DNA of 64,000 nt from TPA_inf: Saccharomyces (GCA_000146045.2 BK006947.3:544001-608000), one strand, 5' to 3'; numbered from the stretch's first letter, positions 17,978 to 24,114 are shown. The notes: generated from the letters alone by a model not told the origin. Numbers and translations are program-made.

Positions 17978-18386
17978 GATACCATGCTAGTATTACAAAT
18001 AATACTAAACAGATGATGTTAGAGTTTCATTCTGAAAAGAATGTGGATTTTGATGTAATTGTTGGGATTCCATTTTTTATAAGGCAATAATATTAGGTAT
18101 GTAGATATACTAGAAGTTCTCCTCGAGGATTTAGGAATCCATAAAAGGGAATCTGCAATTCTATACAATTCTATAAATATTATTATCATCATTTTATATG
18201 TTAATATTCATTGATCCTATTACATTATCAATCCTTGCGTTTCAGCTTCCACTAATTTAGATGACTATTTCTCATCATTTGCGTCATCTTCTAACACCGT
18301 ATATGATAATATACTAGTAACGTAAATACTAGTTAGTAGATGATAGTTGATTTTTATTCCAACATACCACCCATAATGTAATAGAT

Positions 18387-21300
18387 CTAATGAATCCATT
18401 TGTTAGTTAATAGTTTAAATGTTTTTATCGGAAGAGGTTTTGTCATCACATCAGCAATGTTCTTCTTGGTCTCGATGTAGTATACGTATAAATTATTACC
18501 TGATACTTCATCTCTAAGTCTCATTGCCTTTGTGCCAAAAAATCTGTTTCTAAATTTCTCTTCATTTGTAGACTTAATTATACTGATCGTTGATCTACTA
18601 TCAGTAAGTAAGCCTTTAATAATTGGTTTCTTGTTAAGTTCTTGCACAAGGTGACTGAGGTTATTCAATAGCGGAATAGCTTCACTGACTGCGTGTATTT
18701 CTGCTTCTGTAGTTGAAGTGCATGTTAACGAAGCCTTTGTCGACTTTCCTCCAATCACTTTTCCGTTGAGTAGGAAAATGTTACCAATTTGTGACTTGTA
18801 ATATGGTTGGTTACCATATGAAGCATCGCTTATTGCGACTAGTTTATTATCTGGCTTGGTAGGTTTGTTTTTGTGCCATATTAATTGTTTATCTCTAGTG
18901 TCCCACATGAATTGTATTAACTCATATGTCATGTCTAAAACTTGCCTAGAGGGGAATAGTATATGTTGAGCAAGTGTGTTGATGTAGTATAGTAAGTCAA
19001 ATCTAAATTTATATCCAACATATGAAGCTAGACCAATCAACTTTTGCATTTCATGTACTTTCTCTTTGTATTCATCTTCATCTATTTCTAGTTCATCCTG
19101 GTCTATATAATGACCTGGTTGACCTGGAGCTCTAAGTTTCTTTCCTTTTGGGTTCAAAGGTACGTTTAGTTTGGGTAATTTTTCTGTCAAGGATTTTTCC
19201 ATACCTAATTTCATGTACTTGCTTCTTTGATATTTGATCTCTAATCCAAGTATGTCGTACTGAATGTCGTTATCACTTTCACCCAGATTTATTATCTTTG
19301 TATCGTATTGTTTCTTGAGTGTTGTTATGATTTTCTTATTTGCATTTAAGTCTTTGCTGAATAATATCATATCATCAACGAATAAGCAAATTGTTACTTG
19401 ACTATTTTTAAATACGCATGACCATCCGCGAACTTCTTGCATGTCGCAACAATTTATTAAATATGATTTAATGGTTTCATACCAGTTTGCACCACTTTGT
19501 TTCAAACCATAGAGTGATTTTCTCAAACGTAGTAATTTATCATTCAAACCTAAATGTGGTGGAGGTCTTATGTATAATTCTTCTTTGATATCAGCATATA
19601 AGTAAGCAGAGGATATGTCCAGCTGTGTGATATAATAGTCGTTGTCTAATGCGATTGACAGTGACGTCATCAGTGCATAGTGATGTACGGTATTGGATTG
19701 CATATCAGAATCATATGTATCGGGGTGTTGAATGTCGCCTCTTGCAACAAATCTAGCTTTGTGTGTACCATCACGTTTCTTGTTAAATATAAACATTGAG
19801 TTTATTACTTTTTTAGGATCTATGTCATTTCTATCATAATATTTGTTTGTATCCCAAGTGTTCATTTTCAATAGTTGGCTAATTTCTTTATGATAAGCTT
19901 CAACATATCTGTCTTTTTCTTTGTTGTCTTTATTATAAGTAATTGCTTCATCATATCTTAAGGTCGTTCGAACTGGTTTGATCGATTTCACTCCTTTTAT
20001 TGCTGCAATTAAATTTATGCGTTTCTTCGATCTTGGTGGTTCCAGACTTCTCATATTCTTATTATTCCATGTGTCTCGGGATACCTCAATTTCAGTTTCA
20101 TTATCTTCTAATGATCTTTTCTTACTTTTGGTAGTAGTCAGAACATTAGAATCATCCATACCACCCAAACTGGAATTAGTCTGACGAGAGTGTATGTGTG
20201 GAATATCTTTTGAAACATCAGAAGTGTCCGTAGGAGATTGATGGGTTAAGTCAGGAAGTGGGAGGTCGTCAAGAATAGAATCAGCCGTAACATTTTTTGA
20301 GGATTTGTCAGGCATTATATTAGGAGTCGCATGGTCAGAAGATCGATATTCTGGCGGATCCGTATCAATGGAGGGTGTATTATCACATACAGCCTTTGTT
20401 TCTATGGAGATGATGGGAGTAGTGGATTCACTGTTGGACGAACGGTCATCTATTGAGGGCGTACTATTTGTAGTCCTGTATTTGATATTTGTATCACTAT
20501 TTCGTTGAATATATGGTTCCTCCGTACCACCCAAACGTGTAGTTTTGATGTTTTCAAGTCCATAATTAACTCTATCCTGTGAGGTCAAATCAATCATATC
20601 ATTGGGACTACCAGGTCGCTTTTGGTTTCGTGCAGTGAAGGTAGACGAGTGTCTAGGTGAAGTAGTATCTGATTCAACGGTACCAACCATTTCGGTACTC
20701 TCTTTATTAATGATATGGGGTGTACGAGATCGTATAGTAGATGGAAGAATATTGTATTCAGATATGTCGGCATCAACTTCTTTTGGTGCACGTACTTTTT
20801 GGACTGGTTCCTTGTCTAATTGTAAAGGGTTTATTGATTGGGACGAGAAGTCGTTCACTAGAGGATCAGAGTTTATTTCAATCTCCGATTGATAGTCATG
20901 ATCAGATTCTGTATTTTGATCATATGACTGCTCCGTTTCATTTTGTTCAATAAAAGATTGGTTATGGGCTGTTAAACGATTGAGATCATCATCAAAAGTG
21001 AGTGTATCGTAGTCGAACTGGTCCAATTTCGTTTGCTTGTTTTGTAATATAACGTAATTGGTAGTATCTACTGTCTTTTTTAATGATGGAAGATAGATAA
21101 TATAGCCATAAGAGTTTCGTGACGGATGTAAGGCGTAACCTGGAATGCCACGAGGATGTATTTTCGAGTCGGGATTATGGTTGTTAACTATAACCGGTTG
21201 ACCGAAAGGTAGTATAGTAGTAATGTCCAGTCCAGCTAAACCTGCATGTTGTCTTGCGGATTTATCGTTTTTTGGTGAGACTAATGAATTTCTGATTATA

Positions 21301-22427: not shown

Positions 22428-23701
22428 CGCTTAAGTATTGTGATGAAACGGTTGATTCATTAATGTGATCATTGTTCACCCTTGAGAATTTACTAGATGT
22501 AGCAATATTGTGAGCTTTTGCTGCTCTTGGTTTTGAACTATTTGTTCTCTGATAATTACGAGTTGTAACCTTTGTGTTAGTCGTGTTTGGAGATGTGCGA
22601 GAAACATTTTTGTATTCGCTGTGTTGTTTGTATTGGGACGGTTTATTTAGATTCATGATTTTATTTTCGTCATATATTAACTGAATTTCAGCGAATAATT
22701 GGGAAAGTTTCATGTTCGTTTTGGTACGATATTGATTACGTAGGTATTTGAAGTCACCGGATAGACCTTTAAGTATTAGTTGACAGGCCAATCTGTCGCT
22801 AACATTGATATTGTTTTCTTTTAGCCTCTGAATGATCGTACTGACTGTAATTTCAAATGTATCAGCAGATGTACTTCCGTCGTACTCAAGGTTGGCAAGA
22901 GCTATCCAATCCTTTAATTCTTGATTGTTAGTTTGCATTTTGGACACACTTTTACAAAGGACTGTAAGGATGTCAGCATAATTAATTTCTAAAATTTGTT
23001 TTACCCATGTTGGCAATAAATGAAATGGGGCAAATGCTTGGAAGGTATTGTATATATACGCATGTTCTTCATAAGTCATTTGTCTTTTGATTTCACCCTG
23101 GTCATTTGGAATGATGTCACCGAGATTAGAGTTCTTCAAAAATCTGATGTAAAATTTAACCCATGTAGAAAAGTTTTCTTCTGATGTTAAAGTGTGTGGT
23201 GGTAAGACGTTATTTCCCACCTTTGTCTTAGCTTGAGGTATTTCAGAGTGTTGATTTTTTAAATCGATTGGATCAGGTGAGGAAGTACTCAGTGGTGGGA
23301 TATACCGTGGCAACGGATAGTGTGGGTCCGGTTGATAATACGCAGGTGACGTTTGATAATGTGAACACGTCATCATAGATGGTTGTTGGTAATGTGCCCA
23401 GTTAGAGGCCATAGCTTTGTTTGGGGTCATCATGCCGTGCTGTTGGTACTGTCCATTCTGTGGAGGTGGTACTGAAGCAGGTTGAGGAGAGACATGATGA
23501 TGGTTCTCTGGAACAGCTGATGTCCCAGGTGTTGTCTCTTGTTGAGAATTAACCTTAGTGGAATCTCTATCAAATTCCGGTAAATTGGAAGCTGAAACGG
23601 CTAACGGATCTTGATTTGATGGGACTTCCTTAGAAGTAACCGAAGCATAGGCGCTACCATGAAGAAAAATGTGGATTTTGATGTAATTGTTGGGATTCCA
23701 T
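22384..23701 (-). pseudogene. TYA: Ty2 TYA (gag) with a disrupted 5' end. The authentic ATG at 23699-23701 is followed by a 1-nt insertion, so the frame terminates after 15 codons (TAG at 23654-23656).
   Basis: The sequence is ATG GAA TCC CAA CAA TTA CAT CAA AAT CCA CAT TTT TCT TCA TGG TAG. The canonical Ty2 sequence has ...CCA CAT TCT CTT CAT GGT AGC GCC. The long track ORF (22384-23820) is in the Gag frame only downstream of the lesion. Its N-terminus (MMIIIF...) is spurious read-through of LTR sequence upstream of the Ty transcription start. Confidence 0.7.
22414..22420 (-). promoter_or_regulatory. Programmed +1 ribosomal frameshift heptamer CUU-AGG-C at the TYA/TYB overlap.
   Basis: The reverse complement of ggcctaag gives CTTAGGC inside the 44-nt TYA/TYB overlap (22384-22427). 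This is the classical Ty1/Ty2 frameshift signal. Confidence 0.75.
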
Positions 23702-24114
23702 TTTTTATAAGGCAATAATATTAGGTATGTAGATATACTAGAAGTTCTCCTCGAGGATTTAGGAATCCATAAAAGGGAATCTGCAATTCTATACAATTCT
23801 ATAAATATTATTATCATCATTTTATATGTTAATATTCATTGATCCTATTACATTATCAATCCTTGCGTTTCAGCTTCCACTAATTTAGATGACTATTTCT
23901 CATCATTTGCGTCATCTTCTAACACCGTATATGATAATATACTAGTAACGTAAATACTAGTTAGTAGATGATAGTTGATTTTTATTCCAACACATTCCAA
24001 TACCACTGATAAGTACATTCTGCATGTCTATTTATAAAACCTTCTTTAAGACAAATATGCTATTTATCCTTTGATAACAATTTCCTGTGAGACAGAAATC
24101 ACCATAAAATAATC

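Follow-up and report, generated by a model that had tools for sequence, protein, structure and literature searches.

The Ty2 retrotransposon YNLCTy2-1, on chromosome XIV of Saccharomyces cerevisiae S288C, raises the question of how a copy with all the parts of a mobile element came to lose the start of its own Gag frame, and at what stage of its life this occurred. The element lies on the minus strand at positions 18033-23992 of a 64,000-nucleotide (nt) stretch (GCA_000146045.2, BK006947.3:544001-608000), here called the window, to which all coordinates refer; its features are on the minus strand unless stated otherwise. It is 5960 bp long and structurally complete. The answer proposed here, in which we have good confidence, is that YNLCTy2-1 is a young, structurally complete Ty2 whose sole disabling lesion is a real extra T (T4 to T5) in the unique 5′ region (U5) of the 5′ long terminal repeat (LTR), and that it cannot make its own Gag or Gag-Pol, with the consequences and origin set out below. 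The element itself is already known and catalogued, and among transposon copies its kind of defect is nothing unusual, defective Ty elements being common.

The lesion is at the very beginning of the gag gene, TYA. The canonical TYA start codon (23699..23701), at nt 292 of the LTR, now heads a frame of 15 codons, and from A 23701 the sequence reads ATG GAA TCC CAA CAA TTA CAT CAA AAT CCA CAT TTT TCT TCA TGG TAG. The premature TAG (23654..23656) is inside the primer binding site (PBS), TGGTAGCGCC, which lies directly 3′ of the 5′ LTR (23650..23659). An uninterrupted TYA from the canonical AUG, as expected of an autonomous copy, is therefore not present. The frameshift is caused by a run of five T residues (23665..23669), at a place where in-frame copies have TTCTC or TTTTC; counted from the TYA AUG it lies 28-32 nt downstream, among the final 10 nt of U5 in the 5′ LTR. 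The distance from ATG to PBS is 42 nt, compared with 41 nt in intact Ty2 5′ ends. When one T is removed in silico, a 438-amino-acid Gag is restored and, with the +1 shift at the heptamer CTT-AGG-C in the TYA/TYB overlap (22404..22410, in frame with the repaired TYA), a 1770-amino-acid Gag-Pol that has 16 residue differences from the Gag-Pol of the S288C copy Ty2-C. Because deletion of a single T restores both proteins, the extra T is the sole defect that breaks an open reading frame (ORF). The TYA body, from codon 14 (CAT) to the stop (22384..23661; Pfam TYA PF01021, E = 2e-204), is intact, but its frame differs from that of the canonical AUG.

A preliminary description of this DNA had reported the 15 codons followed by TAG, and LTRs that differ exactly at the U5 end. 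Both observations stand, the shift being a single +1 change, and the comparison with other Ty2 5′ ends that it proposed has now been made. The description errs in placing the next Gag-frame methionine over 100 codons further on: that AUG, at element nt 560 (window 23433), is canonical codon 90, and four out-of-frame AUGs precede it.

Comparison of U5 ends shows how the two LTRs relate to the rest of the family. The 5′ LTR ends in CACATTTTTCTTCA and the 3′ LTR in CACATTCTTTTCA; the pair has two differences, located 4 and 7 nt before U5 ends, and is identical over the remaining ~325 nt. Most Ty2 copies have the U5 end CATTCTCTTCA, which reads CACATTCTCTTCA|TGG and gives Gag with H-S-L-H, and a metagenomic copy (locus L005) carries the in-frame variant CATTTTCTTCA, which reads CACATTTTCTTCA|TGG and gives H-F-L-H. 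Relative to the majority U5, the 5′ LTR has a C>T substitution and one extra T; relative to the L005 variant the change is purely +1 T. The earlier claim of one extra T with respect to a Ty2 consensus is thus right about the T and incomplete about the consensus, since the majority sequence also differs by the substitution. The 3′ LTR departs from the majority as well, by a C>T at another position of the same patch.

A change of one nt in the length of a T run is the commonest kind of sequencing error, and the T5 run might be such a sequencing or assembly error, YNLCTy2-1 being in reality intact and autonomous. The preliminary description had put this forward as an alternative. One further assembly, GCA_000269885.1 (L008), bears no information on the matter: Ns replace the whole Ty2 (its positions 11703-18087), with further N-gaps over the inverted-repeat genes, and it is uninformative for repeats. 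The T5 run, however, recurs together with the same 3′ LTR end at the same locus in three other assemblies (L006, L007 and L009). GCA_002571405.2 has no mismatches to the window over 20 kb and nine scattered single-base indels, none of them at the T5 run; on account of these nine indels it is taken to be an independent long-read assembly. GCA_949121635.1 is a noisy long-read assembly with 97.7% identity and the same T5. The third, GCA_016858175.1 (L007), also has T5 but is 100% identical to the window over 20 kb and for this reason is probably not independent, so that independent support comes from L006 and L009. In addition, the 478-amino-acid translation of 22384-23820 matches exactly a PIR/UniRef record, A2P2P8, entitled 'TyA protein, retrotransposon Ty2.N'. 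The identity of this 1990s PIR record in translation means that the original sequencing saw the same frame. The LTRs also differ by a substitution and not by length alone. Comparison of further assemblies of the locus led to rejection of the sequencing-error explanation, which we consider extremely improbable; the extra T is real and not an error of assembly.

The structure of the rest of the element is that of a complete Ty2. The 5′ LTR (23660..23992) is 333 bp and the 3′ LTR (18033..18364) 332 bp; both run TGTTGG...TTCA, as expected for the direct repeats of Ty2 (~332-334 bp, TG...CA), and a 300-nt LTR core is 100% identical between them. The target site duplication (TSD), CATTC on the plus strand and GAATG on the element strand, is found beside the 3′ LTR (18028..18032) and beside the 5′ LTR (23993..23997). 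In six strains (L017, L020, L021, L022, L024, L025) the unoccupied site holds a single GAATG, ...GTGGTATTG-GAATG-AAACTCTAAC..., and the 5-bp duplication is therefore genuine. According to the literature, this PBS is complementary to the 3′ end of tRNA-iMet (PMC4974528). The sequence after the PBS is CCTATG, as in other Ty2 copies, and not the CCTGTG of Ty1. Directly before the 3′ LTR, in the context ...TTATGGGTGGTA|TGTTGG, is the tract TGGGTGGTA (18365..18373), which we take to be the Ty1/Ty2 polypurine tract (PPT).

The pol frame, TYB (18387..22427), is open for 1346 codons from its first ATG. Its Pfam domains are Pol_BBD (residues 31-108), gag_pre-integrs, rve (235-335), SH3_retrovirus and RVT_2 (872-1046), which gives the order protease-like beta-barrel, integrase, reverse transcriptase that is found in copia elements. 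Compared with annotated Ty2 Gag proteins, the repaired Gag has 5-14 differences in 438 residues and is Ty2-type rather than Ty1-type. A 1-bp LTR deletion relative to Ty1 is a diagnostic of Ty2 according to Kim et al. (1998), as quoted in PMC3511429. YNLCTy2-1 has every structural feature of a Ty2, a Ty1/copia-type LTR retrotransposon of the Pseudoviridae, that was looked for, and the lengths, LTRs, duplication, PBS, PPT, CTTAGGC and TYB frame given in the preliminary description are all borne out. Intact Ty2 copies (Ty2-C, also called YCLWTy2-1, and Ty2-OR2; Ty2-917 is the tested active element) have the same LTRs, PBS, PPT, CTTAGGC heptamer and TYA/TYB domains; YNLCTy2-1 differs from these in its 42-nt ATG-to-PBS spacing, with a 15-codon peptide from the canonical AUG as the result.

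Although the canonical frame is closed, the frame of the Gag body is open upstream, through U5 and R into U3, as far as an ATG at 23818..23820 (LTR nt 173), a feature absent from the preliminary description. This ATG, which directly follows TATAAA (23821-23826), starts the 478-amino-acid ORF of the PIR record (22384-23820). The ORF raises the possibility that YNLCTy2-1 still makes a functional Gag in an unconventional way, either from ATG 23820, from a near-cognate start in the 5′ untranslated region (UTR) in the Gag-body frame, by +1 slippage on the U-run or by re-initiation at Met90. Early annotators did name the ORF TyA. The transcript, however, probably begins downstream of its ATG. The Ty1 5′ UTR is 53 nt (PMC5454406) and the Ty1 PBS is at RNA nt 94-104 (PMC4974528), from which the RNA start is expected near LTR nt 240, ~50 nt before the AUG; by homology to Ty1, the predicted 5′ end of the Ty2 RNA falls at GAGGAGAAC (23744..23752, LTR nt 241-249). 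ATG 23820 is ~68 nt upstream of this Ty1-type start and directly after the TATA box, and so should be outside the normal Ty2 RNA. By contrast, no AUG precedes the canonical one in the expected RNA, and position -3 of this AUG is an A; Met90 is handicapped by the out-of-frame AUGs before it. Slippage has the sequence logic in its favour in that tRNA-Phe on UUU could re-pair perfectly one base downstream in the run of five U residues, which would give the H-F-L-H of L005; it should nevertheless be rare, as the U-run is not followed by a rare slow codon such as the AGG of the natural Ty +1 site. Taken together, production of functional Gag by any of these routes appears very improbable.

If the Ty2 transcript starts where that of Ty1 does, the best reading of the 478-amino-acid 'TyA' entry is that the frameshift led to an artefact of annotation. 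A parallel is YCL021W, a dubious LTR-internal ORF that uses the same LTR frame from an ATG just after the TATA box and has 92% identity over the shared part. Frames of the YCL021W type in intact copies end after 50-117 amino acids; in YNLCTy2-1 the extra T joins the frame to the whole Gag body. A search for other LTR-Gag fusion ORFs, as a sign of recurrent frameshifts by +1, returned only short LTR ORFs (50-117 amino acids, YCL021W among them), although clustering at 90% would hide fusions. Many yeast assemblies contain gene calls for short LTR-internal ORFs of the YCL021W type. As to the S288C annotation itself, the Saccharomyces Genome Database (SGD) presumably lists no TYA/TYB ORFs for YNLCTy2-1, unlike most other S288C Ty2 copies.

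Ribosomes that start at the first AUG of the Ty2 RNA would translate 15 codons and halt at the UAG inside the PBS. Ty Pol is translated only as a Gag-Pol fusion (PMC4599808), so that neither Gag nor Gag-Pol would be made and YNLCTy2-1 would be non-autonomous. Its RNA would still retain R-U5, the PBS, the 5′ packaging region, the PPT and the 3′ LTR. As all the signals that act in cis are intact, mobilisation in trans is to be expected: Gag and Gag-Pol of other Ty2 copies could package and reverse-transcribe the YNLCTy2-1 RNA. The minimal mini-Ty1, given helper proteins, requires no more than 380 nt from the 5′ end and 357 nt from the 3′ end (PMC5454406, PMC4974528), and by analogy with such mini-Ty1/helper systems YNLCTy2-1 is probably mobilisable in trans. 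The earlier term 'transposition-defective' is accordingly apt in so far as no Gag or Gag-Pol is expected from the canonical AUG, and too strong with respect to mobility supported by other copies.

That the genome harbours defective Ty copies has been known since the work of Boeke et al. (1988) on functional and non-functional Ty1, as cited in PMC4599808. Non-functional genomic Ty1, mini-Ty1 and untranslatable Ty1 donors are likewise defective in protein, keep their cis signals and need helper Gag/Gag-Pol. In YNLCTy2-1, in contrast, the defect arose naturally as a 1-nt insertion in U5, where those elements have deletions, missense changes or engineered stops, and mobility in trans is a prediction. 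In the standard scheme of reverse transcription, the RNA that serves as template for minus-strand strong-stop DNA would supply, through its R-U5, the U5 of both progeny LTRs. Progeny derived wholly from YNLCTy2-1 RNA would then carry T5 in both LTRs; if the first-strand transfer were intermolecular, from a wild-type Ty2 RNA packaged alongside, the progeny would be repaired and have the gag and pol of YNLCTy2-1.

The insertion is found only in S288C-type assemblies; most of the sampled strains lack it, and the six already listed have an empty site. With these empty sites and LTRs that are identical over ~325 nt, YNLCTy2-1 is young and polymorphic. Its distribution is consistent with the published finding that Ty2 loci are those least often common to different strains (PMC4022208). 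When the same insertion without the extra T was sought in other strains, none was found: strains have either the identical element or an empty site, and other Ty elements near the locus in the sampled strains are different insertions. An intact sibling or parent was also sought by exact look-up of the repaired Gag with an HFLH, HSLH or HSFH N-terminus, together with the ORF that starts at Met90, and no match was found in a collection of 15 billion proteins. Exact look-ups of the 1346-amino-acid TYB ORF, of the Gag NP_620390.1 and of the Ty2-C Gag-Pol returned no contigs. A pattern scan of bacterial and archaeal genomes gave no match, and one of viral contigs gave a single chance match (L056). 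Yeast Ty2 proteins are filed under bacterial names (Streptococcus uberis, Parabacteroides merdae) in the protein collection, which suggests yeast contamination of those assemblies.

When the lesion arose is best approached by asking where the two LTRs of young elements differ. A survey was made of every full-length Ty1/Ty2 in the loci fetched from other strains, which with YNLCTy2-1 comprises nine independent insertions. L045 and the alleles L032/L033, which are without a clean TSD and look recombinant, were treated cautiously or left out of the tally; no full-length Ty was found in the PUB1-side neighbourhoods (L046-L055). LTR-pair differences are concentrated at one end: 15 of 28 lie in the last 14 nt of U5, where 1.2 are expected (binomial P = 5e-14). 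Discordance within this patch affects six of the nine insertions, namely YNLCTy2-1 (window 23660-23673 vs 18033-18045), L017 (reverse complement, 2297-8259), L020 (reverse complement, 2126-8040), L023 (reverse complement, 3103-9027), L028/L031 (reverse complement, ~2328-8289) and L058 (2207-8162). In six copies the LTRs are otherwise identical; four of these (YNLCTy2-1, L017, L020 and L023) differ only in the patch, and two (L027/L041 and L057) are fully identical.

The patch encodes Gag codons 10-13, and the variants among annotated Ty2 proteins are HSLH, HCPH, RSLH, SPNLH and SPNFH. In three of the nine insertions the ATG-to-PBS distance is other than 41 nt: besides YNLCTy2-1, L017 has 43 (+2) and L020 has 40 (-1). 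L017 and L020 would both be frameshifted at the start of Gag if the assemblies are correct; both are long-read, and L020 involves a C-run (C4 vs C5).

Two loci call for separate mention. The same GAAAC target, between YNL035C and NCE103 and with the same duplication and flanks, is occupied by a Ty1-type element of 5914 bp with identical LTRs in one genome (L027/L041) and by a Ty2-type element of 5962-5963 bp in others (L028, L031, L032 and L033). The explanation is either two insertions at one and the same nucleotide or a recombinational replacement of the internal part; in L032 and L033 the 5′ flank is also rearranged and contains an additional fragment of an LTR. In the metagenome contig L004 (976-6650), a Ty2 5′ end and a Ty1-type 5′ end are 5627 bp, or one element-length, apart, and a PBS comes immediately after the closing LTR of the Ty2. 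The arrangement is either a Ty2-Ty1 tandem with a common LTR or an assembly chimera.

The preliminary description had regarded the LTR difference of YNLCTy2-1 as post-insertion divergence. According to this explanation the element inserted intact and later gained its U5 changes by ordinary mutation, that is, a point mutation together with slippage of replication in the T-run. Spontaneous mutation by slippage in homopolymers is common, divergence of LTRs is the standard sign of ageing after insertion, and no allele of the insertion with a different U5 was found by which the change might be dated. The distribution of the changes, however, speaks against it. Uniform mutation would put two differences within 7 nt of the U5 end and none in ~325 nt with a p of about 4e-4 to 2e-3; LTR pairs of other young copies disagree in this patch too, which makes six of nine insertions in all, and in four it is the sole discordant place; and the 3′ LTR, too, departs from the majority, at a different position of the same patch. 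Divergence after insertion is doubtful on these grounds, and ordinary mutation of an intact insertion is unlikely as the source of the lesion. Because discordance clusters in a 14-nt U5 patch of young Ty1/Ty2 copies, random decay is disfavoured, and we put it at about an even chance that the lesion arose in the retrotransposition event that created YNLCTy2-1, or by means of a short gene-conversion tract, rather than by such decay.

With respect to gene conversion, the 5′ U5-PBS-gag region may have been overwritten after insertion by a Ty2 copy or cDNA with a T-rich U5, the tract ending in U5. Carr et al. (PMC3511429) infer at least 19 recombination events among 13 full-length S288C Ty2 copies, the in-frame T-rich variant of L005 shows that a U5 of this type is present in the family, and conversion is visible only where donor and recipient differ, so that it could mimic a hotspot. 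Such a tract, however, must end within ~40 nt of the PBS, since the distinctive TTGCCTTATAAAAAATGG is kept in both LTRs. No other LTR with T5 was found among the 58 loci and hence no T5 donor, and a further slippage event has to be assumed if the donor was not already frameshifted. Gene conversion as the specific origin is, in our estimate, distinctly unlikely.

The pattern also fits an error in the transposition cycle; in the canonical scheme, an error in plus-strand strong-stop DNA would end up only in the 5′ LTR. It can be hypothesized, as a tentative extension, that the last ~14 nt of U5 is scrambled in one LTR by Ty1/Ty2 replication itself, that YNLCTy2-1 was dead on arrival and that the process acts as a brake on the family; we regard this as possible, though its probability is below even. 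The scrambling could come about by mistakes as plus-strand strong-stop DNA is completed or transferred, or by read-through into a second packaged RNA. An appreciable fraction of new insertions would then start out with gag frameshifted, since Gag codons 10-13 are encoded there. Gabriel et al. in 1996 (PNAS) and Mules, Uzun & Gabriel in 1998 (J Virol) reportedly found an error hotspot at the U5:PBS border in de novo Ty1 insertions, at the 3′ end of the 5′ LTR U5; it is said to be due to non-templated addition, heterogeneous RNase H cleavage and primer-template dislocation. The differences observed here, which may reflect the same phenomenon, are 1-12 nt inside U5, and not strictly at the junction, and include substitutions.

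Several considerations weigh against this interpretation of YNLCTy2-1 and of its origin. The survey is small, comprises mostly one Ty hotspot and draws in part on long-read assemblies in which homopolymer lengths are unreliable. Its clustering could arise from frequent gene conversion, the patch being only the place where donor and recipient differ. Homology to Ty1 is the basis for the transcription start. On UUU-U, tRNA-Phe may slip by +1 at a low level, which would restore the frame exactly. The loss of Gag, the stability of the RNA and mobilisation in trans are all matters that we infer, and trans-complementation of one Ty2 by another is extrapolated from Ty1 systems.

The genomic surroundings agree with the identification of the element. 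Ten window ORFs are exact S288C protein matches: the Ty2 ORF and nine flanking-gene proteins, BOP3/YNL042W, COG6, YNL040W, BDP1, IDH1, YNL035C, KTR5, FAP1 and HDA1. YNLCTy2-1 has been named and placed beside the tI(AAU)N1-YNL034W-YNL033W block (PMC2712687), and the element in the window adjoins this block in exact agreement. Flanking genes, tI(AAU)N1 block and the 478-amino-acid TyA entry all match those of YNLCTy2-1 of S288C, with no difference between the two.

Ty1 and Ty2 normally integrate upstream of genes transcribed by RNA polymerase III, and YNLCTy2-1 conforms to this pattern: its TSD is 118-122 bp upstream of an intron-containing tRNA-Pro(UGG) gene (24115..24217, plus strand; Rfam tRNA, 48.7 bits, anticodon read from the sequence). 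The gene was found by Rfam and missed by ARAGORN. A second intron-containing tRNA gene, at 3094-3196 (plus strand), has the identical Rfam score and was also missed by ARAGORN. Elsewhere in the window are ordinary annotated genes unrelated to the Ty2, RNase MRP RNA (41589-41918, plus strand, 74 bits) beside the small nucleolar RNA snR66 (42083-42183, plus strand, 115 bits).

Inverted repeats of ~4.2 kb are present at 25857-29930 and 54299-58395, with ~24 kb between them; they consist of tI(AAU)-YNL034W-YNL033W and YNL019C-YNL018C-tI(AAU), respectively. The repeats themselves have been described (PMC2712687). The segment between them has the opposite orientation in many other strains and represents a common inversion polymorphism; in strains with the inverted orientation, YNL033W-YNL035C are adjoined by ARK1/HDA1 and not by SIW14/histones/KTR5. 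The comparison was made in L018, L019, L023, L025, L027, L031-L034, L036, L037, L039, L040, L044, L048 and L054.

The lesion itself matters little, and YNLCTy2-1 should be left out of counts of potentially autonomous Ty2 copies. It remains a substrate for ectopic recombination, as seen in PMC2712687, where it is invoked in template switching during chromosome rearrangement, and is probably a substrate for mobilisation in trans. The side observation on the U5 patch is the more useful lead. If replication does scramble the patch, dating of young elements by LTR divergence would be biased. Should the clustering of differences be general, the patch would need to be masked when insertions are dated, and part of what is taken for 'decay' of Ty elements would be replication error at birth.

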